A DNA stretch of 64,000 nt from the NCBI GenBank assembly GCA_039000165.1, contig JAWBTW010000002.1, positions 3,245 to 67,244 of the forward strand, in the 5' to 3' direction. Position numbers and translations under genes: made by a program. Below, piece by piece: positions 44,998-58,611 of the stretch. The DNA is from Candidatus Aenigmatarchaeota archaeon (GTDB lineage Archaea > Aenigmatarchaeota > Aenigmatarchaeia > CG10238-14 > SCSR01). A model generated the notes under the pieces. That model saw nothing but the letters and a program-made list of their open reading frames with translations, was not told the DNA's origin and made no database searches. Every line of letters begins with the position of its first letter. Within the stretch, counting starts at the first letter, position 1.

Positions 44998-45092
44998 TCT
45001 TTAACCTTTTTTAAAATGAAAAAGATAACTCTTTTTTAACTTATATAAGGAAGTAAGTTTTTTAAAAGTTTCTGTTTGCTGACTTTTTTTAA

Positions 45093-45108
45093 TGTTAGAC
45101 GTCTAACA
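45093..45108. repeat. 16-bp perfect palindrome TGTTAGACGTCTAACA, copy 1
   Basis: Exact copy. Sits in the divergent intergenic region between genes 44122(-) and 45194(+). Confidence 0.9.
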
Positions 45109-45193
45109 GAAAAGCAGCCAACAAACATTTCATAGATTTTTTTGGAATATTCCATACATAACTTATAAATACTTTATGGAATATCCTTAAATT

Positions 45194-45490
45194 ATGGAAA
45201 AAACCTTTGAAGAAATGCTTGAAAGCGTAAGAGTAAAGAAAGTCTCTCAACTTACAGCAAAAGTTTTTGAAATTATTCATTCTAGATGGCCCACAAATCC
45301 GCTAGAAGTTGCTGAGATTTTAGGAGATAAAGGAAAAGAGAAAACGCTTTCTGCAAAGTACCTTTACCATTTTCGCAAGCTTAAGGAAATGGGGTTAATA
45401 GACATGAAAAAAGTTGGAAACACTTACATAGCATGGCCTACTGAGATTGAAAAGCTTAGGGTTGTGCATGAATTATTAAAAGGGTTGTGA
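45194..45490 (+). CDS. small winged-helix protein (putative regulator)
   Basis: 98 aa with a wHTH-like pattern. First gene after palindrome copy 1. Confidence 0.4.
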   Translation: MEKTFEEMLESVRVKKVSQLTAKVFEIIHSRWPTNPLEVAEILGDKGKEKTLSAKYLYHFRKLKEMGLIDMKKVGNTYIAWPTEIEKLRVVHELLKGL

Positions 45491-45499
45491 GGTGAGAGA

Positions 45500-46036
45500 A
45501 TGGGGATAGCTGTTATGTTGAAAAAACTTTTGCTTGGAAGGGCTTTTTCTGCTGAAGAAGGAAGGGTTACGATTTTGGGAAGATATAACGTAACTTTAGT
45601 GGAAAGTTGTGGATTTGCGTATCTTCATCAGAAAATATTTGAAGAACTTGGAGAAAAAAAGGCTTTTAAAATTTTAATGGAAGCTACAGAAATTGCAATC
45701 GAAAACGCAACAAAAGCATTTGGACTAGTACCTTTTTTTATGAGCATAGAAAAACTTTTACCTTTAACAGATTTTTATGGATTAGGGAAATTTAGCGTAA
45801 TTCACAAAGAAGAAAATGAAAAAAAAGTTGTATTGTTAATTAAAGTTGAAAATTCTCCACTTACAGAATATGCCAAACAAAAATGGGGAAAGAATTCAAA
45901 AATATGTAAAATAGTAGAAGCAAATTTAATTGTGACGGCTAAACTTATCTACAAAAAAACACCAAAAGTAGAGGAAATTTCCTGCTACACTAAAGGTGCT
46001 CCTTATTGTACATTTCGTGTAGAAATAGAAAAGTGA
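45500..46036 (+). CDS. V4R-domain (small-molecule binding) protein
   Basis: About 178 aa with a C-terminal CYTKGAPYCTFRVE Cys pair typical of V4R domains. Confidence 0.45.
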   Translation: MGIAVMLKKLLLGRAFSAEEGRVTILGRYNVTLVESCGFAYLHQKIFEELGEKKAFKILMEATEIAIENATKAFGLVPFFMSIEKLLPLTDFYGLGKFSVIHKEENEKKVVLLIKVENSPLTEYAKQKWGKNSKICKIVEANLIVTAKLIYKKTPKVEEISCYTKGAPYCTFRVEIEK

Positions 46037-46041
46037 TTTCT

Positions 46042-47493
46042 ATGATTGAAAAAATAGCATCTTGGTATGTTAAAAGAAAAAGAAATGAAATAGCAAAAAA
46101 AGTGAGAAAAGCAATGCTTTCCATTCCATTCTACAAACAACAAATTAAAAAAAATTCAATCGATTTACATGAAGTAAGAGAAATCAACTCAATAGAAAAA
46201 CTTGATAAATTTCTTCAAAAACATAAAATAAATTGGTTAGAATCTACCGAACTAATGAGAAATGATTTTTCTTCTCATTTAAGTCTCGCTCCTACAAATA
46301 AAAGAATATGGGTGCAAGTATCTTCTGGCTATAGTTTGGTAGAAAAATTGAGAAGTGGAGAAAATTTTTTAGAAAGTGTACAAAAATTTAAAAGAAAAAA
46401 AGTAGCCTTTACTCAAAAAGATTTAGAACTTGTGATAAAAGAAGTTTATCTACGTGGGGCTAAAAGAATAGCCTCAAATGATTCGATACCAACTATTTCT
46501 ATTTTTTCCAGAATGTATATTTATGGTGGTTCAGGAACATATCCTTTTGCAGCTCTTGTAAGAGTATCACAGAAGTTTCCTTTAAGAATTTTACCCTACG
46601 GTGAACCGTTAAGCCAGGAACAACTTTGTGATTATGTACTTGATTCCGTAGAGAATAACACTAACTGGATAATCACTACACCATCAATTTTAAGCGACAT
46701 AGGTAGATTTATGGTAGAAAATAATCTAAGGTACAGGAATCTAAGGTATGTAGGTATGGGTGGATTTAAACCAAGTAAAGAAGTTGTAAATCTAGGACAT
46801 GAAATAGGAGCTAAAATAATTATAGACGCTTACAGTGTTCAAGAATGTATGCCACTCGGTTGTATAGCCTCTGGAACTATATCAAGTGAAGACAAAAATT
46901 GGGAAACTAATGAAGGATTAATGGTTATGGGAAATTTGTGTCATGTAAGAGTAGTCGATAAAAATGGGGAAAACGTTAGTGAAGGTGAAGAAGGAGAAAT
47001 AAGAATAACTTCACCCTTTGAAGGAACGTTTTTAATTGACTATGCTCCTGGTGATATCGGTAAACTTTTAAGTTATACTTCTAGTGTCAGTTTAGATAGT
47101 TCTAGGGTAAATCTTCCTTTTCCTTTACTTTCCTATGACATAAGAAGAAAAGAAGAAAATGAATATGTAAAGATAAAAGAGTATCCAGTTTCTGTTGGCA
47201 TTCTAAAAGAAATCTTAACATCTTATGTTGATTATAATTTTGCGATTTGCAAGCCACAAACAAAGGGAGAACTGCTAATATTAATTCCAAGTAATATTGA
47301 AGAGAGAAATTATGAAGAAATGTGTAAAAAGATAAGATATACAGTTTGCCCTTTACGATATAGCCTCCTTAGATTCAAAAAAATAGACGAGAGTAAACTT
47401 AAAAAAATTGTTTTCCCAAGTTTACACCACAAGCCACACAATCTTATCCTCTCGCCCTCAAAAGAACTAGAAAGTGAGCTCTATGCCAGCTAG
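46042..47493 (+). CDS. divergent adenylate-forming enzyme (PaaK/F390-synthetase/LuxE-like ANL superfamily), tentative
   Basis: SSG.. P-loop remnant (VQVSSGYS), YAPGDIG (Y.TGD-like) and GEIRITSP. The start is chosen at ATG 46042 after the V4R stop; the ORF track starts at 46006. Confidence 0.4.
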   Translation: MIEKIASWYVKRKRNEIAKKVRKAMLSIPFYKQQIKKNSIDLHEVREINSIEKLDKFLQKHKINWLESTELMRNDFSSHLSLAPTNKRIWVQVSSGYSLVEKLRSGENFLESVQKFKRKKVAFTQKDLELVIKEVYLRGAKRIASNDSIPTISIFSRMYIYGGSGTYPFAALVRVSQKFPLRILPYGEPLSQEQLCDYVLDSVENNTNWIITTPSILSDIGRFMVENNLRYRNLRYVGMGGFKPSKEVVNLGHEIGAKIIIDAYSVQECMPLGCIASGTISSEDKNWETNEGLMVMGNLCHVRVVDKNGENVSEGEEGEIRITSPFEGTFLIDYAPGDIGKLLSYTSSVSLDSSRVNLPFPLLSYDIRRKEENEYVKIKEYPVSVGILKEILTSYVDYNFAICKPQTKGELLILIPSNIEERNYEEMCKKIRYTVCPLRYSLLRFKKIDESKLKKIVFPSLHHKPHNLILSPSKELESELYAS

Positions 47494-48187
47494 CTTAACT
47501 GATTTGCTCTGGGAAATCTATCCATTTTTTTACGACTCCCTAAACAACTTTGCTCCATACAAAAAAATGATAAGAGATACTGCTGAAAGCTTAAACTTTA
47601 GTAAAGGGAAGAAATTTCTTGACGTTGGTTGCGGAACAGGAAATTTGATTCAATATCTAGTTAAAAATTCTAAGGAAATCGAGGTTTGGGGTATAGATGC
47701 TTCAGAGCAAGCGCTTAAAATTGCCTCAAAAAAAATTAAAAATTCAAACGCTAACGTCAAGCTTTGCCAGTACTATTTTGAAGAAAAGCTTCCTTTTAAT
47801 GATAACTACTTTGACGGAATCGCTGCTGTTAACTTTATAAACTACTTAAGCCCAAGCTCTTTACAAAATTTTGTAAGGGAAGCGAGGAGAATTTTAAGAA
47901 AGGGGGGAAGGCTAAGCTTAGTCTACACAAGCGAAGTAGAATACTTTAAGGGAAAAAGCGGCTTTAAGTACTCTTTAAAAGAAAAACCGAAACAAACGAT
48001 TTTATCCCTTCCTTTCTGCGTGGCTGTTGGCTTGATGAACATTCCCATGAAATTAAAAGTCAACCTTATCCCTTATTCTAAAACTTATGTAGAAAAACTT
48101 CTTGAGGAAAACAACCTCAAGATCCTTAACACAAAAACAACTTATTATTCTCATAGTACCTTGCTAACAACTAGCGAAAAAATTTAA
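47474..48187 (+). CDS. class I SAM-dependent methyltransferase
   Basis: Motif I LDVGCGTGNL. Motif post-I and II spacing is typical. Confidence 0.75.
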   Translation: MSSMPASLTDLLWEIYPFFYDSLNNFAPYKKMIRDTAESLNFSKGKKFLDVGCGTGNLIQYLVKNSKEIEVWGIDASEQALKIASKKIKNSNANVKLCQYYFEEKLPFNDNYFDGIAAVNFINYLSPSSLQNFVREARRILRKGGRLSLVYTSEVEYFKGKSGFKYSLKEKPKQTILSLPFCVAVGLMNIPMKLKVNLIPYSKTYVEKLLEENNLKILNTKTTYYSHSTLLTTSEKI

Positions 48188-48194
48188 AAAACTT

Positions 48195-48827
48195 TTGGAA
48201 TATTCCAATTTATCTTTTAACAAACAAATTAATTATATGTTTGAACCTCCAAAAGGTTATGAAAAATATTGCGAACCAACTTTTTTGTGCGAATCTAACC
48301 TGCCAGAAATAAAAGAGCTAGCCCAAGCTTTAGCAAAAGATAAAAAAACTCCTGAAGAAGCTGCTAGAGCATTTTTTTATTGGGTAAGGGATAATGTTGC
48401 TTGGAAAGTAGAAGAGATAGTTGGTGCTAAGGAAACGCTAAAAAGAAACCCTATGCATGGAGTATGTGCAGATAAAGCTAATCTCTTCATAGCTCTTTGC
48501 AGAGCTGTTGGAATTCCTGCAAGGTATCTTTTAATATTTAGATGTCAGCTTAACGCTAAGGTAAAGGATTTTCCAAAAAAAGTTGGGCATGTAGCTGCTA
48601 AAGTTTACTTAAACAATGAATGGAAAGTTGTAGATCCAACTTTTGGAAAGGATACGGAAAAGCTAATTCCTTTAAGTGAGTTTGACAGACCAAGCTGGAA
48701 AAGAATTGCTGGAGTCTTGAGAGTAAGAGAGCTTTCTGTTTCCTTAGCTTTATTTTCCATGCTTATTCTAAGGTTTAGTCGCTCTAGCCTAAAGATGAAA
48801 GAATTGATAGAAAGTTTGAGAAAATGA
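48195..48827 (+). CDS. transglutaminase-like cysteine protease-fold protein
   Basis: GVCADKANLFIALCRAVGIPARYL has the catalytic Cys context. Downstream GHVAAKVYL...WKVVDPT supplies His and Asp. Confidence 0.6.
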   Translation: MEYSNLSFNKQINYMFEPPKGYEKYCEPTFLCESNLPEIKELAQALAKDKKTPEEAARAFFYWVRDNVAWKVEEIVGAKETLKRNPMHGVCADKANLFIALCRAVGIPARYLLIFRCQLNAKVKDFPKKVGHVAAKVYLNNEWKVVDPTFGKDTEKLIPLSEFDRPSWKRIAGVLRVRELSVSLALFSMLILRFSRSSLKMKELIESLRK

Positions 48828-48839
48828 AAAGGTTGTTAA

Positions 48840-48855
48840 TGTTAGACGTCTAACA
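48840..48855. repeat. 16-bp perfect palindrome TGTTAGACGTCTAACA, copy 2
   Basis: Exact copy, 13 bp after the transglutaminase-like gene stop. Confidence 0.9.
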
Positions 48856-48990
48856 ATTTCTAAACTAACCACTTCCACAAAGGTTTGAAAACAATTTTTT
48901 TGTTTTCTATTTTTAATTGATCTTCATAATCCCAGGTTATCACTAGCAAATCCTTGCATTTAAGCAAGGAGGATGCTTTAAAATTGTTAA
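48856..48990 (-). pseudogene. 5'-truncated 3'-terminal fragment of a COG1373/DUF4143 AAA ATPase paralogue
   Basis: Reverse strand translates in frame to KASSLLKCKDLLVITWDYEDQLKIENKKIVFKPLWKWLV*. This matches the C-terminus of gene 50356-51639 (KASKELKCKDLLVITWDYEGQQKIKNKKIVFKPLWKWLLVDFF*). About 85% nt identity over roughly 110 bp. Confidence 0.6.
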
Positions 48991-48999
48991 ATGTCTAAC
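48984..48999. repeat. degenerate copy (13/16) of the TGTTAGACGTCTAACA palindrome
   Basis: TGTTAAATGTCTAACG, 12 bp downstream of the serS stop. Confidence 0.5.
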
Positions 49000-49010
49000 G
49001 TATAAAAAAC

Positions 49011-50291
49011 TCATTCACCCAAAACCTCAATTCCGTTCATGTAAGGAACCAAAACTTTTGGAATTTTCACGCTCCCGTCTTTTTGCTGGAAGTGTTCGAG
49101 AATGGCTAGCATGGTCCTGCTTGTCGCTAAGGCAGTAGAGTTTAAAGTATGGACAAAACCTTTTGGTTTTTCTCCTTCCTTTTCTCTAAACCTAATGTTA
49201 AGCCTTCTTGCTTGGTAATCTGTGCAATTAGAGTTTGAGCCTATTTCCCTAAACTTTCCGTCAACCATCCAAACCTCTGTATCGTACTTTTTTGCCGCTA
49301 CTGTTCCTATATCTCCTGTGCAAACGTTTACTACACGGTAATGCAAACCTAAAGCTTGATAGAGCTCCTCACAATTTCTTTGCAGCTCTTCGTGCAAATC
49401 CCAGGAATCTTCTGGCAAGCAAAAAATGAATTGCTCAACCTTGTTAAACTGATGCATCCTGAAAAATCCTTTCGTGTATTTTCCGTGCGTACCTATTTCT
49501 TTTCTAAAACATGGACTTATTCCAACAAACTTCAAAGGCAAGTCTTTTTTATTTAAAATTTCATTCATGAACATTGCTCCTATAGGATGCTCAGAAGTTG
49601 CTATCAAGTATAAATCTTCATTCTCTATTTTGTAAGTTACCATTTCAAAATCGCTTGGGTCTATCATTCCTTCGTAAGCTTTTCTGTTTATCATGAAAGG
49701 AGGCTCTACAGGAATATAGCCTTTTTTAATCATAAAATCTAGAGCAAACTTTTGAATGGCTAGATCGAGCAAAACCAATTCTTTTTTTAAGTAGAAAAAG
49801 CCTGCCCCAGCAACTTTTGCTGCCCTTTCTTGATCTACCAAACCCAACTCTAAAGCAATTTCTAGATGATTTTTTGGTTTAAAGTTAAACTTTGGTGGGG
49901 AACCAACTCTTCTTATTTCAACATTATCGTTTTCATCTTTACCAAAAGGTACAGAATCGTGCAAAATGTTCGGTAGCTTGAGCAAAATATCCCTTACTTC
50001 TTTTTCCAGTCTGCTCGACTCTTCTTCCATTCTTTTTATTTCGTCATGGATTTTCTTAGCTTCGTTTAAGATTTTGCTTGTATCCTTGTTTTCTTTCTTC
50101 AACCTTGAAATTTCTAAAGTAAGTTTGTTCCTTCTGTTTCTCAGCTTGTTTATTTCTGTTTTGAGGCCACGCAATTTCTTGTCAAGCTCTAAAAGCCTTT
50201 CGAACATTTTCAATTTTTCCGGGTCTTGCCTCTTTTCCAAATTTTTCCTTACAAACTCTGGCCTCTCTCTTATCAATTTAATGTCAAGCAT
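49011..50291 (-). CDS. serS: seryl-tRNA synthetase
   Basis: N-terminal coiled-coil arm (MLDIKLIRERPEFVRKNLEKR...), class II motifs FRKE and GSNSNCTDYQARRLNIRF. 426 aa. Confidence 0.9.
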   Translation of the reverse strand: MLDIKLIRERPEFVRKNLEKRQDPEKLKMFERLLELDKKLRGLKTEINKLRNRRNKLTLEISRLKKENKDTSKILNEAKKIHDEIKRMEEESSRLEKEVRDILLKLPNILHDSVPFGKDENDNVEIRRVGSPPKFNFKPKNHLEIALELGLVDQERAAKVAGAGFFYLKKELVLLDLAIQKFALDFMIKKGYIPVEPPFMINRKAYEGMIDPSDFEMVTYKIENEDLYLIATSEHPIGAMFMNEILNKKDLPLKFVGISPCFRKEIGTHGKYTKGFFRMHQFNKVEQFIFCLPEDSWDLHEELQRNCEELYQALGLHYRVVNVCTGDIGTVAAKKYDTEVWMVDGKFREIGSNSNCTDYQARRLNIRFREKEGEKPKGFVHTLNSTALATSRTMLAILEHFQQKDGSVKIPKVLVPYMNGIEVLGE

Positions 50292-50339
50292 GTTTTTACC
50301 TTAATTTCAATTAATTAAAGGTTGCTCAAATATTTTCTT

Positions 50340-50355
50340 TGTTAGACGTCTAACA
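50340..50355. repeat. 16-bp perfect palindrome TGTTAGACGTCTAACA, copy 3
   Basis: Exact copy. Abuts the AAA ATPase stop codon and lies 49 bp upstream of the serS start. Confidence 0.9.
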
Positions 50356-51639
50356 TTAAAAAAAGTCAACCAATAACCATTTCCACAAAGGCTTAAAAAC
50401 AATTTTTTTGTTTTTTATCTTTTGTTGACCTTCATAATCCCAGGTTATCACTAGCAAATCTTTACATTTAAGTTCTTTGCTTGCCTTTATTAAAGACCTA
50501 ATTTCCCTTTTCTCAACCTCATCTTTACTAGAAGCATAAGTAACTTGAATTAGTTGATTGATTTTTAAACCTTTTTTCACGGCAAAATCTACCTCAAAAT
50601 CGTTCGATTTGAAGTAAAAAATTTCATCAACTTTTCCTTCAAACTTTTTTCTCAAAAGAGAAATAGCTACCAAGTTTTCCATTTTTTTCCCAAAATCTTT
50701 TGAAAACCTTGGTTCAATCGCAAAGTAAACATTATCTACCAAATAAATCTTTGCAGGATACTTTGCTCTTTCTCTGTACTTTAAAGAAAATCTTTTTATC
50801 GGAAAAACAAACAAAGCCTCTTCCACATACCTCAAATAATTCGCTAAGGTTTTTTTGCTAACTTTCAAGCCGATCGATTTCAATTCTTTTTCAATTTTTG
50901 TTAATGAGATATAGGAGGAAGAGTTTGCTATGCAATACCTAACAAAATAATCCATAAGTGTAACATTTTTTATTTTAAACCTTTCTATCAAATCCTTAAA
51001 AAATACGGTAGTAAAATAGGTTCTTGCTATTTCAATTTTCTTGTTTTTCTCGTCAGCAAGAAGAATTTCAGGATACCCTCCAAAATCAAGAAATTCTTTC
51101 AAAAGCATTAAAATTTCACCAACCTTTGCCTTAGAAATTTCTTCCCTAACTACAAACTTTTTTAGCTTAAGAAACTCTTTAAAGGTAAAAGGAAAAATTA
51201 TATAAGGAATACACCTTCCCCTTAGCTCGGTTGAAATCTCTCTGCTTAAAAGTTTTGAAGAAGAACCAGAAATTATTATTTTATATTTTTGGAAATTGTG
51301 CAAAGTTCTAACGAACGAAGGCCATTCTTCTAACTCTTGAATTTCGTCCAAGAAAAGAAAAACTTGATTTTTAAACAGTGAATTTACTTCCTTTAAAAAC
51401 TCAGAAACACCAATTTTTCTTACTCTTGGGTCGGTAAAATCTATGTAAACAACATTATCTTTGGAATTATTCTTTTCAAAGAGCTCTTTTATTAGCTGGA
51501 ACATAAAATAGGTTTTACCAGCTCTTCTTGGTCCTATAAGGGAAACTATGTGCTTGTTTATCCATACCTTTAAATCTCTCTCGATTATATCTTGCGGTAG
51601 TTCTTTCTCTTTCCACTCTAGTAAAACCTCTCTTAGCAT
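50356..51639 (-). CDS. AAA+ ATPase, COG1373/DUF4143 family
   Basis: Walker A GPRRAGKT, Walker B FLDEIQ, C-terminal DUF4143-like region. 427 aa. Confidence 0.75.
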   Translation of the reverse strand: MLREVLLEWKEKELPQDIIERDLKVWINKHIVSLIGPRRAGKTYFMFQLIKELFEKNNSKDNVVYIDFTDPRVRKIGVSEFLKEVNSLFKNQVFLFLDEIQELEEWPSFVRTLHNFQKYKIIISGSSSKLLSREISTELRGRCIPYIIFPFTFKEFLKLKKFVVREEISKAKVGEILMLLKEFLDFGGYPEILLADEKNKKIEIARTYFTTVFFKDLIERFKIKNVTLMDYFVRYCIANSSSYISLTKIEKELKSIGLKVSKKTLANYLRYVEEALFVFPIKRFSLKYRERAKYPAKIYLVDNVYFAIEPRFSKDFGKKMENLVAISLLRKKFEGKVDEIFYFKSNDFEVDFAVKKGLKINQLIQVTYASSKDEVEKREIRSLIKASKELKCKDLLVITWDYEGQQKIKNKKIVFKPLWKWLLVDFF

Positions 51640-51709: not shown

Positions 51710-51725
51710 TGTTAGACGTCTAACA
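51710..51725. repeat. 16-bp perfect palindrome TGTTAGACGTCTAACA, copy 4
   Basis: Exact copy, 71 bp upstream of the AAA ATPase start codon. Confidence 0.9.
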
Positions 51726-51754
51726 CAAAAAATCCTTATTTATACTTTTAAATG

Positions 51755-51991
51755 CTAACTTTCGTTTAAATTTTCATAATTTTTATTCTCTCCAAATTTC
51801 TTTTTTCCTAATAAATAGCCTAGAATAGCTCCATAACAAAAAGCAAAATCTTTTTCTTTTCCTTCTGCTAGCTTTATTCCGAACTTTAAGCCTTTGATAA
51901 AAGAATCCAAGTATTCTTTTCCTTCTGCCTCTTCAAAAAATTTTTCCATCAAAACTTTTGTAAAATTTAAGTATCTTTTTTCTTCTTCCAC
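51755..51991 (-). CDS. hypothetical small protein
   Basis: 78-aa ORF. No motif. Confidence 0.25.
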   Translation of the reverse strand: MEEEKRYLNFTKVLMEKFFEEAEGKEYLDSFIKGLKFGIKLAEGKEKDFAFCYGAILGYLLGKKKFGENKNYENLNES

Positions 51992-52040
51992 AAAGAAAAA
52001 ATGAAAGAAAAAGTATTTAAGTACTTGAAAAAACTCAAAA

Positions 52041-52346
52041 TTATTCCATCTTTTTCCCTTCTTTATATCCTCTTAAAAGCTTCTCCATCTCTTTTTCATA
52101 TTCTTTTCTAAGCTCAGAAATCTTGCCCAAATAATCTAGCGTTAAAGACCTTATTTTTTCCTGAGCTTCGCTTCTACCTTCTAAAAACTCCCTAAACAAA
52201 GAATAAGCTATGTTACCAGCCAGAAGAGAAGAAATCAGACTTTCCCAATTCCTCACGTAATCCAAATCCTTCTTTATTTCTTCAAAACTTCTCATACTTT
52301 TAAAATAAAGAATAAATTTTAAAAAACTATTCTTTCTTAACAACAA
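52041..52346 (-). CDS. hypothetical small protein
   Basis: 101-aa ORF, overlapping the upstream KaiC-like gene end by 20 nt. Confidence 0.3.
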   Translation of the reverse strand: MLLRKNSFLKFILYFKSMRSFEEIKKDLDYVRNWESLISSLLAGNIAYSLFREFLEGRSEAQEKIRSLTLDYLGKISELRKEYEKEMEKLLRGYKEGKKME

Positions 52347-54685: not shown

Positions 54686-55594
54686 TTATACCTCCAGGCT
54701 TGGCCTCCTAACTTTTATCAAACCAATAAACATGAATTGGAAGATTATCAAGAATCCCAAAATTAGGTATAGGAAAATGTCTAAGGGCAGGAATGAAAGA
54801 CCAAAGAAAGAAGAAAGAATTATTATGAAAGTTATTCCTAGAGTTGGAATAATAACTGCAGTCATCAAATACATCAAAGCCATAGGATTAAGCTGAGCTC
54901 CATACCTTCTAATCTCAATTCTCTGGTCTATTGCTAAGCCATTAACTATTTCTCTTAAAGTTGTTGCTATGTCTGAGCCAGCTCTCATTCCATTAACTAG
55001 TTGCCAAATAACCCTTCTAAAGTAGAGAGAAGGATTCCTAAAAGACATGTTTTCCAAAGCTTCTATCTCAGAAACTCCTGCGTTTATTTCCTTTACTGCT
55101 TCTTCAAATTCTTCTGAAACCAAACCATAATCTCCTGCAGCAACAGAAACCATAGCGTTAAAAAGAGTAACTCCTGACCTAACTTGAATCAGCAAATGCC
55201 TTAAAGCATAGAGCAAATCTCTTTCCAAAAGCCTTATTTTCTTAATCAAGAGCATTTTTGGGTAAAGAATTACGTAATAAAAAACAAAGAAAGTTATTCC
55301 TATATCTAGGGAAAGCATGGTAACAAGATAAGTTGGAGTAAAGGCAGCTAAAGGATTTAAAGGATTAGAAATTATCCCCAAGAAAATTGTTATGAAAATC
55401 ATTAGAGCAAAATAAAAAAATGCGGTAAAAATTGCTAAGGCAATGTATTCCCTAGGGTTCAAATCAACCTTTGCTTGTTTAAGCTCATAACTTAAAGAAG
55501 GAAAAAGCTTTGCCATCTCTTTGCTTACTCCAAAAAACTTCCTTGCATAATTCAAAGCTACTTCTGTTTTGAAAGGAAGTAGGGGAATCCTCAA
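54686..55594 (-). CDS. TadB/FlaJ-like pilus assembly membrane protein (T2SSF domain), N-terminal half-equivalent
   Basis: T2SSF-like domain plus TM helices. Start overlaps the ATPase stop by 4 nt. Confidence 0.65.
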   Translation of the reverse strand: MRIPLLPFKTEVALNYARKFFGVSKEMAKLFPSLSYELKQAKVDLNPREYIALAIFTAFFYFALMIFITIFLGIISNPLNPLAAFTPTYLVTMLSLDIGITFFVFYYVILYPKMLLIKKIRLLERDLLYALRHLLIQVRSGVTLFNAMVSVAAGDYGLVSEEFEEAVKEINAGVSEIEALENMSFRNPSLYFRRVIWQLVNGMRAGSDIATTLREIVNGLAIDQRIEIRRYGAQLNPMALMYLMTAVIIPTLGITFIIILSSFFGLSFLPLDIFLYLILGFLIIFQFMFIGLIKVRRPSLEV

Positions 55595-58500
55595 GTTTTC
55601 AACTCCTTCATCAAATCTCCTAACAATCTCTCTGGACTAATATTAGCTTTTATTGCACTTATTATTTTTTCTGGTTCAGAATAATACTCAGAAATAACAA
55701 AACCAACAGTATTGACAGTATTAATATTGTGCCTAACTAACCAATCAAGAACCATTTGCCTTTGAGCAAGCTCTTGAGCTATTTCTTGATCTGTCATTCC
55801 TGTGTAAAGCCTTAAGTCGTCCATTATTCTCATGCTTGTCTTGAAAGGAATAATTTCATCCTTATCTGCTCTCCACCTAAACAAAGTGTTAAGCTGAACT
55901 CCTCTTTCACTTGGAATAATTTCAGAAACTTGAAAAACTCTCCTTATTCCTTTTCTTCTGTCTCTGTGCATTGCTAGTATAATATGCAAAGCTTCTAAGA
56001 GCATTTCTGGCACGTTTATCGGTGGATTAACTAATCTTCTAACAGTTTGCTCTGCAGTGTCTGCATGCAAGGTTGAATAAACTGAATGACCAGTGTGCAT
56101 AGCTTCGAACAAAACTTCTGCTTCCCTTGCCCTTCTTATTTCTCCTACTATTATTCTGTCTGGCCTCATTCTCAAAGCGTTTACCATTAAATCTAACATA
56201 GAAACTTCTCCCTTTCCTTCAGGGTTCGGCTCTCTTGTTGTTAGAGGGACCCAGTGCAAGAAATCTGGCAACTGAATTTCTCTTGTGTTGTGCGCTATTA
56301 TATTGTTACAAACAAAACTTTCATTTCCTGGAACACTTATATCATAAACATAACCTTCAAACTCTCTTTCCTTTATTTCCTTTACTCTATCCCAAAAGAT
56401 GTCGTTACTAGCTAACTTTATTAAAATTTCATTTCCACCATCGTTTGCAATCTTACTCACAATTTCTTTCAACAATTCTCTCCCTATGTTAGATTTCATG
56501 TAATTTCTGTGCCAAGATTTCCATCCCTTATAACTTCTTTTTACTCCAACCTCTTCTTTTAACAATTTTTTAAGTCTGAGATAAAAGTGCTTTGGCAAAG
56601 GAACTACATCAGAAACATCATGGACTTTTTTATGCAACAAACTAAAAAGTTTTTCGTTGTTTTTCTCTTGCAAAAATCCAACTTCATAAAAGAAAGTTTT
56701 TAAAAATTTTGAACCAGAGATTGTTGCTTGATAAGTATTATCCTTAAACTTTTTTCCTATTCTTAAAGGAATTCCAAACCTTAGCAAAAGTGTTTGAATA
56801 TCTTTTAGAAGATTGAATGAAACAGAAGAAACTGCAACATCCTTTGACCTTACCCAACCATCTCCTGAAAAGTATCCTTTTAAAAATGCTGCTAGCTCTT
56901 CTTTTTCCAGACCAAAAACCCAACTTGGAACTCTTTTAGTATAGACATTTCCTTCTAACCCTAAAACTTCTTTGAAAAATGTTTTAAACAGTTTTGAATT
57001 AAGCATCAAGGAAATTTTATCACTATGCAATTTACAACCCATTCTAAACCTTTTTGCAATTTTCCTAATAATTTTTTTACTTTCCTCATCAGTAACAGAA
57101 AAAATAACAGAATTTCTATCGTAACAGCCATCTGCAAGCCAAAGCCCAGCTACTAATGCTAAATCTTTATTTACGCTAACTTTTAAAGGTAAGAAAGAAC
57201 CGCTTCTAGATTTTATTTTTCCTTTTCTTGGTTTAACGTTTAGCTTCTGCAGCACTTCAGCTTTCAAAACTCCTTTTTTTAAGTAATAGTAAGCTTGTTG
57301 CTTTGATAAAAGTTTTGATTCTACCAGCTTTTTAAAGTTTTTTCTAATAAATTCTTTGTCCACTTCAACAAAACATCCTTTGAATTTCTCAAGCTCTAAG
57401 GAAAGGTCAAAAACTTTCTTTTTTCCTTCATAAGGGAGTATTCTTGGTACTGCAATAAAACTTCCAACTTTTATTTCTTTTCCAGGAATTGGCACTATTT
57501 CACCGTTTTCGTTCAAACCAAAAAGAGAATGATCTTCTGTAACTGAAATCTTTCTTCCGCTAGCTAAAATTATATCTAAAACTTTCTTTTTTACTTTATG
57601 CCTAATAAAGTGGGAAGGTAGAGCAAGCTTAATTTTTCCATCTTTATCCATGGAAAAAATTTTTATGTTATCTTTGTTTTCAACTTTTTCTTCACCATCG
57701 GGGAGTAAAGAATCTATTAGTTCGCCAATAGCCTTTCTAAAGATTTCTCCTTTCCTTTCAAAAAGGATTTCACAATCGCCAGTGACGCTATCCTCTATCG
57801 AAACAATTCTATGGTTTGGTGGAATGAAAGTTGTTAAAACGTTCAGAATAGAAGTTTTTCCTGTTGCAGTCCCCCCAGAAACTATTATGTTCATTTCATA
57901 ATGAATGGCAAGCCAAAGCAAGGAAGCTACCTCTTTGTTTATTGTATTGTTTCTTATCAAGTCAGTTATCGTCCAAGGTTTTCTCGCAAATTTTCTTATC
58001 GTAATAGTATTTCCTTTTGTTGAAATCGGGAATAAAGTTGCGTTAACTCTGTCTCCTGTTGTTAGGTGCGCATCCATCAAAGGGTTTAAACTAGTTATTT
58101 GCCTTCCAACTTTCCTTCCTATCATGCTTGCATAGTTGTAAATTTCCAAATCACTTTTTATTACTATGTTAGTCTTAAGCCAACCATACTTTTTATGATA
58201 AACCCACAAAGGCTCTTGAGAATTGTTTATAACTATTTCTTCCAGATTTTCATCCTTAAGCAAAACTTCAACTTTTCCCAAGCCTAGCATCTCATGAACT
58301 AAAGTACCTGCCAAAATTCTTTTTTCTTCCTCAGAAATTCTTGGTAATTGTCTTTGAATTAGTTCTAAAGCCTTGTTGAAAAACCTTTGCTTCAAATCTT
58401 CCATCACTCTTGGGTCAAGAATTTCCTGAACTTTCACTCCAACTTCAGTTATTAACCTTTCCCTTATAGCAGATAAAACTGCTAGGGTTGCTTCCTCAAA

Positions 58501-58611
58501 CTTTGGTAAAGAAACTTCATAAATGGGAACAAATTCACCTTCTATTTTAACTATGTTAACCTCTGCAGGCACACCTTCTGCAACAAGCTTATAGCTATCC
58601 AATATTCTCAT
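55591..58611 (-). CDS. type IV pilus/archaellum-type secretion ATPase (TadA/FlaI/KlbA-like) containing an intein
   Basis: Walker A GGTATGKTS. Extein Asp box RIVSIED|TREIQLP is interrupted. Walker B DRIIVGEIR and a His box are present. The 505-aa extein is normal for the family. Confidence 0.85.
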   Translation of the reverse strand: MRILDSYKLVAEGVPAEVNIVKIEGEFVPIYEVSLPKFEEATLAVLSAIRERLITEVGVKVQEILDPRVMEDLKQRFFNKALELIQRQLPRISEEEKRILAGTLVHEMLGLGKVEVLLKDENLEEIVINNSQEPLWVYHKKYGWLKTNIVIKSDLEIYNYASMIGRKVGRQITSLNPLMDAHLTTGDRVNATLFPISTKGNTITIRKFARKPWTITDLIRNNTINKEVASLLWLAIHYEMNIIVSGGTATGKTSILNVLTTFIPPNHRIVSIEDSVTGDCEILFERKGEIFRKAIGELIDSLLPDGEEKVENKDNIKIFSMDKDGKIKLALPSHFIRHKVKKKVLDIILASGRKISVTEDHSLFGLNENGEIVPIPGKEIKVGSFIAVPRILPYEGKKKVFDLSLELEKFKGCFVEVDKEFIRKNFKKLVESKLLSKQQAYYYLKKGVLKAEVLQKLNVKPRKGKIKSRSGSFLPLKVSVNKDLALVAGLWLADGCYDRNSVIFSVTDEESKKIIRKIAKRFRMGCKLHSDKISLMLNSKLFKTFFKEVLGLEGNVYTKRVPSWVFGLEKEELAAFLKGYFSGDGWVRSKDVAVSSVSFNLLKDIQTLLLRFGIPLRIGKKFKDNTYQATISGSKFLKTFFYEVGFLQEKNNEKLFSLLHKKVHDVSDVVPLPKHFYLRLKKLLKEEVGVKRSYKGWKSWHRNYMKSNIGRELLKEIVSKIANDGGNEILIKLASNDIFWDRVKEIKEREFEGYVYDISVPGNESFVCNNIIAHNTREIQLPDFLHWVPLTTREPNPEGKGEVSMLDLMVNALRMRPDRIIVGEIRRAREAEVLFEAMHTGHSVYSTLHADTAEQTVRRLVNPPINVPEMLLEALHIILAMHRDRRKGIRRVFQVSEIIPSERGVQLNTLFRWRADKDEIIPFKTSMRIMDDLRLYTGMTDQEIAQELAQRQMVLDWLVRHNINTVNTVGFVISEYYSEPEKIISAIKANISPERLLGDLMKELKT
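56287..57789 (-). mobile_element. intein (501 aa) with LAGLIDADG homing-endonuclease domain in the secretion ATPase
   Basis: Block A SVTGDCEIL (Ser1), block B TEDH, two LAGLIDADG motifs (LVAGLWLADGCY, LAAFLKGYFSGDGWV), C-terminal ...IIAHN followed by +1 Thr. Inserted at the conserved IED|T site. Confidence 0.8.

Follow-up and report, generated by a model that had tools for sequence, protein, structure and literature searches.

The V4R domain is regarded as a binding module for hydrophobic ligands that signals in cis or in trans (PMC2253512). In MsvR, the methanogen-specific V4R regulator, a helix-turn-helix (HTH) and a V4R domain are found in one polypeptide, and the redox-sensing cysteines of MaMsvR are spaced 26/8 (PMC3729527). 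Here we describe a locus that combines proteins reminiscent of this regulator with enzymes related to the PaaK-type ligases of the ANL superfamily. It lies in a 64-kb stretch of DNA (the window; GC content about 33%) from a metagenome-assembled genome (MAG) of Candidatus Aenigmatarchaeota and consists of five genes encoding, in this order, a putative winged helix-turn-helix (wHTH) protein, a standalone V4R-domain protein, a divergent PaaK-family ligase, a class I S-adenosylmethionine-dependent methyltransferase and a protein with a transglutaminase fold (Table I). We tentatively read the cluster as a regulated small-molecule pathway. The translated ligase open reading frame (ORF) matches NCBI entry QXQ69_00585 with 100% identity. 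A literature search returned background on MsvR and V4R only and no described system with this five-gene architecture, in agreement with an earlier note on this DNA that was made from the sequence alone.

Cluster organization and conservation

The five genes lie on the plus strand, all in one direction, between two exact copies of a 16-bp palindrome, TGTTAGACGTCTAACA (at 45093 and 48840), as the earlier note had described. They are spaced by 9, 5, −11 and 49 nt, the negative value corresponding to an overlap of 11 nt between the start of the methyltransferase gene and the stop of the ligase gene; the ATG at 48237 retained for the transglutaminase-fold protein is backed by homologues as well as by the operator-like palindrome at 48196–48207. 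Gene spacing and the shared operator argue for joint expression, on which the note had made its reading depend.

The V4R, ligase, methyltransferase and transglutaminase-fold genes are kept together in at least six lineages of Aenigmatarchaeota, with ligase identity down to 36%, and the co-conservation in other archaeal genomes envisaged earlier extends across lineages at 36–78% ligase identity. Moreover, the window shares its flanks with the loci L010 and L006: to the left lie a rhomboid gene and a gene for 291 aa, to the right genes for KaiC-like, T2SSF and intein-containing T2SSE proteins. Over this range, window to L006, the locus is therefore chromosomal and has been inherited vertically. 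The full cluster is limited to one lineage of Aenigmatarchaeota (DPANN), a small group of archaea from hot springs.

The tightest conserved core is the pair of ligase and methyltransferase genes, which overlap in nine of 11 loci. This pair also occurs alone, on contigs of 37–44% GC, compared with 28–33% in Aenigmatarchaeota, that are binned as Bathyarchaeia or remain unbinned. Ligases of these mobile-looking contigs are 60–66% identical to the window ligase, that is, closer than some of the Aenigmatarchaeota copies, and the pair has therefore moved horizontally.

The ligase family is small: it comprises 15 clusters among 5.8 billion proteins and about 20 clusters among 1.84 billion representatives, and its border is marked by a jump of the E-value from 1e-110 for members to 1e-7 for the next proteins. 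Among 185,579 species genomes there are four ligase loci. Two are labelled Aenigmatarchaeota, a third is the L006 contig, from an archaeal MAG without classification, and the fourth is a pseudogenized copy in a MAG of Bathyarchaeia. IMG/VR contains no relative of the ligase, so that this database gives no ground for calling it a viral gene.

Ligase structure and motifs

The domain assignments of the earlier note hold, that of the wHTH as a candidate one with sub-threshold matches, and include that of an adenylate-forming enzyme with a degenerate P-loop. Sequence comparison places the ligase far from characterized enzymes. A search of the PDB with the single sequence matched nothing and a profile search gave insignificant matches only; with the NCBIfam model paak_haloarch, for which 700 bits are required, the ligase reaches 26.4 bits, and the F390 synthetase model TIGR03335 (F390_ftsA) gives no match at an E-value of 0.1 or better. 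The nearest outgroup proteins are PaaK/FlxY/DVU_1553/F390-type ligases.

Structure prediction with AlphaFold2 was more informative. A first model based on an alignment of 14 close homologues was poor (pLDDT 59) and still matched ANL enzymes only. Addition of distant PaaK-like sequences from a profile search led to a second model with a pLDDT of 87.9 and a pTM of 0.81. Comparison of the latter with the PDB using Foldseek retrieved PaaK1, PaaK2, BT_0428 and 2-hydroxyisobutyryl-CoA ligase (HCL) with E-values of 5e-23 to 1e-19 and TM-scores up to 0.72; next in rank came ClxA, NatL2 and AjiA1, which are amide and ester synthetases of the PaaK family. All of the top 37 matches are PaaK-family proteins (E-values 5e-23 to 3e-14, TMt up to 0.72), and the ANL-superfamily fold that the earlier note had assigned to this ORF is therefore, in particular, a PaaK fold.

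In an alignment of 31 sequences, PaaK-like outgroups included, Y264 and E268 of motif A5 (YxxxE), G318, D338 (A7) and R369 (A8) are invariant, and the lysine of A10, K464, is conserved in at least 90%. The P-loop of motif A3, [ST][ST]G[ST][ST]GxPK, is not retained: S95-G96 alone is kept, and the TGKP residues are replaced by Y-S and an insert of about 20 residues that forms two helices and ends in the conserved R118-K119. The protein thus has a PaaK-family ANL fold in which motifs A5, A7, A8 and A10 are kept and the P-loop is replaced.

The model was also aligned, over about 550–600 columns, to two proteins of 532–761 aa from the BFVD database, A0A2I2L327 (Orpheovirus) and A0A3G4ZRZ8 (Edafosvirus), both annotated as arylamine N-acetyltransferase. 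In these proteins an ANL domain may be fused to a Cys-His-Asp acyltransferase, which would parallel the pairing of ligase and thiol enzyme described here.

Other proteins of the cluster

The methyltransferase matches Pfam Methyltransf_25 (E-value 4.7e-22; 78.9 bits with a cut-off of 27). Its motif I reads LDVGCGTGN, and LDxGCGxGN is invariant among homologues. The best-matching families are UbiE/MenG, CMAS and CFA synthase, a likeness that hints at a hydrophobic substrate.

The transglutaminase-fold protein is recognized by Pfam Transglut_core (PF01841; E-value 6.4e-20; 71.9 bits with a cut-off of 23). Its Cys-His-Asp triad, C91, H132 and D147 in the numbering of the 210-aa ORF, is invariant in four lineages, and its C-terminus is a hydrophobic segment. 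The closest relative in the PDB is 3isr (E-value 3.5e-8). Both this family and that of the V4R protein comprise about ten clusters, and all members with a taxonomic label come from Aenigmatarchaeota.

A profile search of the V4R protein against the PDB gave no match. Most members of the family, and the window protein as listed in the database, carry the precomputed Pfam entry PF02830, and the locus L081 encodes two V4R proteins that score 47.9 and 34.4 bits, one of them a 27%-identical paralogue. Cysteines C136 and C162 are invariant; C169 is mostly conserved, the lineage of L004 being an exception. The 98-aa product of the first gene is the most conserved protein of the cluster, with 100% identity to its L001 counterpart and 76% to that of L006, and has paralogues that are 58–62% identical. 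Its comparison with the winged helix of BlaI (1p6r) gives a sub-threshold E-value of 0.36 over residues 15–82.

A paralogous pair of wHTH and V4R genes (58% and 27% identity, respectively) is found in L081/L054 and in L088 (269–1080). In L081 (2193–6944, the same as L054 5598–9430) the genes encode, in order, a KaiC-like protein, a PaaK-like ligase of 491 aa whose P-loop is canonical, a V4R protein of 185 aa, a 345-aa protein resembling the N-terminal domain of the ligase (on the opposite strand), the wHTH paralogue and the V4R paralogue; copies of the motif TGGAATATTC lie upstream of the 491-aa ligase gene. The wHTH and V4R genes are a recurring two-gene module that accompanies PaaK-like ligases, and since it stands beside other such ligases too, the module most likely regulates or serves the ligase.

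Promoters and recombination tract

The 12-bp palindrome TGGAATATTCCA has exactly two matches in the window, compared with 0.14 expected, and these are the copies O1 and O2 of Table I. The ATG of the first gene lies 27 nt from the center of the TATA-like box, a distance that implies a leaderless transcript; judged by archaeal promoter geometry, a promoter giving rise to such a transcript would thus precede the first gene. In each of the window, L001, L010, L006 and L115, the first gene is preceded by an invariant block that consists of TTTTTGGAATATTCCATACAT, the TATA-like box and the half-site. Among 128 loci examined, TGGAATATTCCA is confined to those bearing the cluster, with degenerate copies upstream of the transglutaminase-fold gene in L006 (9359) and L018 (2513). 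In the lineage of L004, neither the wHTH gene nor the motif is present. In L081 the motif recurs ahead of the second operon of PaaK-like ligase and V4R genes, next to the wHTH paralogue. The placement of the motif in the cluster, together with its joint absence with the wHTH gene, argues for two promoters under one regulator, for which the 98-aa protein would be the candidate.

Comparison with L001 reveals a 1.5-kb tract of a different history within the cluster. Nucleotide identity is 95–100% over positions 45096–45695, falls to 69–81% over 45696–47195 (compared with 7656–9155 of L001) and returns to 86–100%, mostly at least 92%, over 47196–48795. The synonymous distance (dS) is 0.06–0.08 in the wHTH, methyltransferase and transglutaminase-fold genes and 1.2 to saturated in the tract, where the ratio of nonsynonymous to synonymous distance (dN/dS) is about 0.1. 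The combination of high dS and low dN/dS identifies the tract as an old functional allele that was imported as one piece, which is consistent with the V4R protein and the N-terminal domain of the ligase sharing a ligand or acting on each other. Local positive selection was considered as the cause of the divergence and is ruled out by the same dN/dS value.

Table I. Features of the window and of related loci (positions outside the window are those of the contig named; MT, methyltransferase; TGase, transglutaminase-fold protein)
Feature	Position or locus	Strand	Remarks
Putative winged-helix protein gene	45194..45490	+	98-aa ORF
Standalone V4R-domain protein gene	45500..46036	+	178-aa ORF
Divergent PaaK-family ANL ligase gene	46042..47493	+	483 aa; ATG 46042 chosen from homologues over ORF start 46006
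Class I SAM-dependent MT gene, UbiE/CMAS-like	47483..48187	+	ATG 47483 chosen from homologues over ORF start 47474
TGase gene	48237..48827	+	196 aa; ORF start 48195
Operator-like palindrome TGGAATATTCCA (O1)	45143..45154	.	Directly upstream of the B recognition element/TATA box (BRE/TATA) of the first gene
Second TGGAATATTCCA copy (O2)	48196..48207	.	29 nt upstream of TGase ATG
TATA-like box TTATAAATA	45163..45171	+	Followed by half-site
Half-site TGGAATAT	45177..45184	+	
Recombination tract (imported divergent allele)	45696..47195	+	V4R domain and ligase N-terminal domain
TGTTAGACGTCTAACA copy 1	45093..45108	.	Exact; synteny breakpoint relative to L001
TGTTAGACGTCTAACA copy 2	48840..48855	.	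12 nt past TGase stop codon
TGTTAGACGTCTAACA copy 3	50340..50355	.	Abuts ATPase stop codon; 48 nt upstream of serS ATG
TGTTAGACGTCTAACA copy 4	51710..51725	.	70 nt upstream of ATPase ATG
Degenerate fifth copy TGTTAAATGTCTAACG	48988..49003	.	3 mismatches; 7 nt past serS stop codon
DUF4143 ATPase 3'-end relic (…F A D F F stop)	45075..45092	+	18 nt, inverted, abuts copy 1
DUF4143 ATPase 3'-end relic	48866..48964	-	99 nt, after copy 2; 90% identical to 50374-50472
Seryl-tRNA synthetase gene serS, neighbor	49011..50291	-	Syntenic L001 orthologue with Pfam Seryl_tRNA_N and tRNA-synt_2b
AAA_14/DUF4143 ATPase gene, neighbor	50356..51639	-	Pfam; PADLOC candidate defense family PDC-S01, E 6.3e-101
All five genes, same order	Window; L001/L002/L012; L006/L007/L015		Ligase identity 76% (L001 group), 36% (L006 group)
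wHTH-V4R-ligase up to contig end	L010		Ligase identity 78%
V4R-ligase-MT-TGase	L004/L005/L013; L016/L017; L018		L004 group: 42%, TGase convergent, no wHTH
wHTH-V4R-ligase-MT	L115		Ligase identity 38%
Ligase and MT alone	L003 8001-10191		Beside terminase, tail-tube, HK97-gp10 head-tail virus genes
Ligase and MT alone	L008 89-2231		Near DUF87 and ATPase_2 genes
Two tandem ligase and MT pairs	L009 4799-9143		36% identical to each other; beside helicase and type IIG restriction-modification gene
Ligase and MT alone	L011 4776-6242		Beside DNA N6/N4 methyltransferase
Pseudogenized ligase and MT copy	L014 1561-3822		
TGTTAGACGTCTAACA examples outside the window	L123 3653-7127; L095; L038; L101; L081		

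Proposed function

The general scheme that we favor, and to which we give an even chance, is a regulated small-molecule pathway in which a hydrophobic or aromatic carboxylic acid is activated and methylated, the acyl group then being transferred or hydrolyzed by a thiol enzyme; for any particular step our confidence is much lower. The activation, methylation and transamidation suggested in the earlier note would likewise be a plausible guess. A leaderless promoter guarded by TGGAATATTCCA would drive the wHTH-like, V4R, ligase and methyltransferase genes, and a second promoter with the same palindrome would drive the gene of the Cys-His-Asp enzyme. The wHTH-like protein would bind TGGAATATTCCA and so autoregulate both promoters. 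The V4R protein would bind a hydrophobic or aromatic ligand and either relay its presence to the wHTH protein, the two forming a split MsvR-like regulator, or hand the ligand to the ligase. Using ATP, the ligase would adenylate the carboxylic acid and transfer its acyl moiety to CoA or, as amide and ester synthetases of the PaaK family do, straight to an amine or hydroxyl group. The translationally coupled methyltransferase would methylate substrate or product, and the thiol enzyme would transfer or hydrolyze the acyl or amide product. Ligase and methyltransferase would form a self-sufficient catalytic core, and this pair has also moved onto provirus-like or mobile-element-like DNA of other archaea. 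The analysis itself shows the gene set, its folds and motifs, the co-conservation, the common cis-element, the recombination tract and the distribution; that the 98-aa protein binds DNA, which substrate and acceptor are used, how the steps follow one another and what the transglutaminase-fold enzyme does are inferences.

Several observations weigh against this interpretation. None of the five families has a member with a characterized substrate, product or activity, and the family matches of the methyltransferase are generic. Three of the proteins score below the profile cut-offs. The V4R protein scores a borderline 30.4 bits against Pfam V4R (PF02830/COG1719), the cut-off of which is 31; the 98-aa protein has sub-threshold matches only, to HTH_20 in five of six family members (best E-value 0.008) and to HTH_5 (E-value 0.057); and the match of the ligase to AMP-binding (PF00501) is partial, covering model positions 255–377, with 27.6 bits for a cut-off of 29.9. 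Since the canonical ATP-binding P-loop is missing, catalytic competence of the ligase is assumed from its other motifs, and binding of TGGAATATTCCA by the 98-aa protein is deduced solely from their co-occurrence. The transglutaminase-fold gene is inverted in L004. Moreover, no V4R, wHTH or transglutaminase-fold genes adjoin the ligase and methyltransferase copies on mobile elements, and with the V4R gene of L004 lacking its wHTH partner and the enzyme pair standing alone elsewhere, the five genes are not an obligate unit.

A more specific version of the scheme, rather unlikely in our view, would see in the cluster a new kind of acid-activating system. It would make the standalone, Bet3-like V4R protein the ligand-presenting partner of a P-loop-less PaaK-type ligase; V4R domain and ligase N-terminal domain would form an exchangeable specificity module that strains swap by recombination, with a ligase-methyltransferase core shared with viruses or mobile elements of Bathyarchaeia. 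If this were true, the sharing with Bathyarchaeia elements would point to symbiont-host or virus-host chemistry, for example the modification of a scavenged lipid-like or aromatic metabolite.

Alternative explanations

Four other explanations were weighed, all of them weaker than the regulated small-molecule pathway on the evidence given. The most serious, although quite unlikely, is that ligase and methyltransferase form a defense or counter-defense module that modifies a nucleotide, cofactor or signaling molecule and was domesticated under V4R/wHTH control in Aenigmatarchaeota. The genomic surroundings of the isolated pairs invite this explanation, as they lie beside genes of a virus (L003), of a type IIG restriction-modification enzyme and helicase (L009), of a DNA methyltransferase (L011) and of DUF87 and ATPase_2 proteins (L008), on contigs whose GC content, given above, differs from that of Aenigmatarchaeota. 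The window cluster itself abuts the gene of a PDC-S01 candidate defense ATPase, and close strains carry very different alleles of the V4R protein and ligase N-terminal domain. The latter, however, are under purifying and not diversifying selection, as the dN/dS of the tract indicates, and the Aenigmatarchaeota keep the cluster in stable synteny, surrounded by housekeeping genes. Database comparisons do not help the explanation either: the ligase, V4R, wHTH and transglutaminase-fold proteins have no significant match in PADLOC or PHROG (in PADLOC, the ligase and transglutaminase-fold protein have none at all, and the wHTH and V4R proteins marginal ones with E-values of 0.004–0.01), the match of the methyltransferase to PADLOC mad2 covers the generic methyltransferase domain only, and IMG/VR holds no relative.

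The earlier note regarded the locus as a palindrome-bounded cassette, and one could take the five genes to be mobile or integron-like with TGTTAGACGTCTAACA as their recombination site. We consider this very unlikely, and the cassette as a unit has to be given up. The palindrome occurs in exactly four copies in the window with none expected (45093, 48840, 50340 and 51710); the five genes lie between copies 1 and 2, and the gene of the DUF4143 ATPase between copies 3 and 4. Homology of the window with L001 and L012 begins exactly at copy 1 and runs to copy 2, the DNA on the left being unrelated, and because of this exact start TGTTAGACGTCTAACA is evidently a site of rearrangements. In line with mobility, the ATPase gene varies in copy number and has left relics at the palindromes: an inverted match of 39 nt between 45075–45113 and 50335–50373 is 90% complementary, positions 50356–50373 being the intact ATPase C-terminus and stop codon. 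L115, a lineage with 38% identity, carries TGTTAGACGTCTAACA on both sides of its wHTH-V4R-ligase-methyltransferase genes, and the ligase-methyltransferase pair has clearly moved between genomes. The half-sites GTTAGAC/GTCTAAC agree with GTTRRRY/RYYYAAC, the integron core-site consensus.

Nevertheless, TGTTAGACGTCTAACA is a dispersed intergenic repeat of the lineage and not a border specific to the cluster. A metagenome scan for it yielded 105 stretches; on low-GC contigs 76 of about 80 instances are intergenic, typically 0–30 nt after a stop codon and some 45–50 nt before the next start, and arrays of it lie between housekeeping genes, for example those of tyrosyl-tRNA synthetase (TyrRS), TFB and SUI1. 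L010 has the left synteny of the window and no TGTTAGACGTCTAACA upstream of the cluster; the upstream copy is likewise absent from L006, where a compensated variant, TGTTATACGTATAACA, flanks the ATPase gene only. Synteny is conserved down to 36% ligase identity, no integrase, transposase or other recombinase is found among the annotated neighbors, and the ligase-methyltransferase copies on mobile elements come without TGTTAGACGTCTAACA. That the palindrome could belong to the DUF4143 ATPase gene was also considered and is ruled out by the arrays between the TyrRS, TFB and SUI1 genes. An RNA hairpin or terminator is weakly supported (−4.8 kcal/mol, z about −1; no Rfam match for TGTTAGACGTCTAACA); possibly, the palindrome is a protein-binding site. 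The variant TGTTATACGTATAACA represents a symmetric compensatory change in a distant lineage. Between the ATPase gene and the KaiC-like gene, TGTTAGACGTCTAACA is accompanied by a pair of short conserved ORFs of about 78 and 84 aa (window 51726–52326, minus strand; L001 15458–15998), and the same pair directly adjoins the cluster in L115 (3333–3904).

Transglutaminase-fold enzymes include proteases and protein cross-linkers. It is therefore conceivable, if improbable, that the cluster modifies a protein or peptide, the alternative raised in the earlier note, with the ligase activating its carboxylate, the transglutaminase-fold enzyme cross-linking or processing it and the methyltransferase capping it. 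The intact Cys-His-Asp triad would fit such an activity, as would the presence of LahSB, a peptide C-terminal methyltransferase, and MccD among the structural relatives of the methyltransferase. However, the cluster holds no conserved gene for a precursor peptide, its intergenic gaps being 5–49 nt; the closest structural relatives of the ligase (PaaK, HCL, NatL2, AjiA1 and ClxA) act on small aromatic or aliphatic acids; and in five contexts ligase and methyltransferase occur without the transglutaminase-fold gene.

Finally, a redox-stress module in which a split MsvR-like thiol sensor (the wHTH protein and the cysteines of the V4R protein) controls an F390-synthetase-like enzyme that adenylylates a cofactor without forming a thioester has little chance of being correct, for although the spacing of the three V4R cysteines resembles that of the MsvR redox-sensing cysteines (PMC3729527), the C-terminus of the V4R protein weakly matches the NCBIfam MsvR model and F390 synthetases share one PaaK-like clade with the nearest outgroup proteins of the ligase, the MsvR score is 16 bits with a cut-off of 220, the ligase lacks the TIGR03335 match mentioned above, the lineage of L004 has not kept the third cysteine, and the methyltransferase and transglutaminase-fold enzyme would be left without an obvious role.

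Neighboring genes

The serS homologue of L054 and L081 is 83% identical to that of the window, and both loci carry exact copies of TGTTAGACGTCTAACA at the position after serS where the window has the degenerate fifth copy. The DUF4143 ATPase, which shows a weak match to an Mrr-like nuclease, is encoded once in the window and twice in L001 (12371–15343). Farther to the right, at 55591–58611 on the minus strand and in the row KaiC-like/T2SSF/T2SSF/T2SSE, the T2SSE gene encodes a type IV pilus/archaellum-type ATPase split by an intein with a LAGLIDADG homing-endonuclease domain.

Significance and comparison with known systems

As every component comes from a known superfamily, the cluster does not constitute a new category of system. 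Its interest lies in the P-loop-less ANL enzyme, a testable model of operator, regulator and V4R protein, and a rare conserved accessory pathway, as we read it, in a DPANN lineage with a core common to mobile elements. For ANL enzymology, the ligase is an example of a PaaK-type fold that retains motifs A5 to A10 with its P-loop replaced, and it is relevant to annotation because curated cut-offs miss it. The association of wHTH, V4R and PaaK-like proteins together with the 12-bp operator provides a testable regulatory model for archaeal V4R proteins. The genomes of Aenigmatarchaeota and other DPANN archaea are small and encode few biosynthetic pathways; a conserved, specifically regulated three-enzyme cluster is therefore a lead on what such episymbionts make or modify, the practical importance of which is limited by the very narrow distribution of the cluster.

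Compared with MsvR, the window encodes the HTH and V4R parts in two genes that are 9 nt apart and not in one polypeptide. MsvR autoregulates at an inverted repeat (PMC3729527), and the cluster likewise has an inverted repeat at its own promoter, of a different sequence. The cysteine spacing is 26/7 in the window V4R protein as opposed to 26/8 in MaMsvR. The match of the V4R protein to the MsvR model NF053755 is confined to its last 43 residues and reaches 16.2 bits where 220 are required; furthermore, unlike the hosts of MsvR, the organism of the window is not a methanogen, and in one lineage the V4R protein persists without a wHTH gene.

The DVU_1553/DVU_1556 neighborhood defined in NCBIfam likewise combines the gene of a PaaK-like ligase with that of a class I methyltransferase. 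The window ligase scores 24 against the DVU_1553 model (cut-off 300) and the methyltransferase 63 against the DVU_1556 model (cut-off 155); the literature search found no mention of either locus tag, and the likeness may be generic. With bacterial transglutaminase-like cysteine proteases such as 3isr, the window protein shares the Cys-His-Asp triad and an N-terminal F-x-C-(E/Q)-S motif. It is much shorter, with 196 aa, lacks the Bact_transglu_N domain of its next relatives, has a hydrophobic C-terminus and belongs to a family confined to Aenigmatarchaeota.

The closest known counterparts of the ligase are the PaaK-family enzymes, to which it is 12–16% identical. Their P-loop, T/S-S-G-T-T-G-K-P, is replaced in the window ligase by SSG(Y/F), the insert of about 20 residues and RKK; additional inserts lie between A5 and A6 and between A7 and A8, and the protein scores far below every NCBIfam equivalog cut-off. 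Yet it has the same two-domain fold as PaaK1/PaaK2, BT_0428, HCL and NatL2/AjiA1/ClxA (Foldseek E-values 5e-23 to 1e-15, TM-scores up to 0.72), and it has in common with the family motif A5, the aspartate of A7, the arginine of A8, the lysine of A10, the size class and the N-terminal helical extension.

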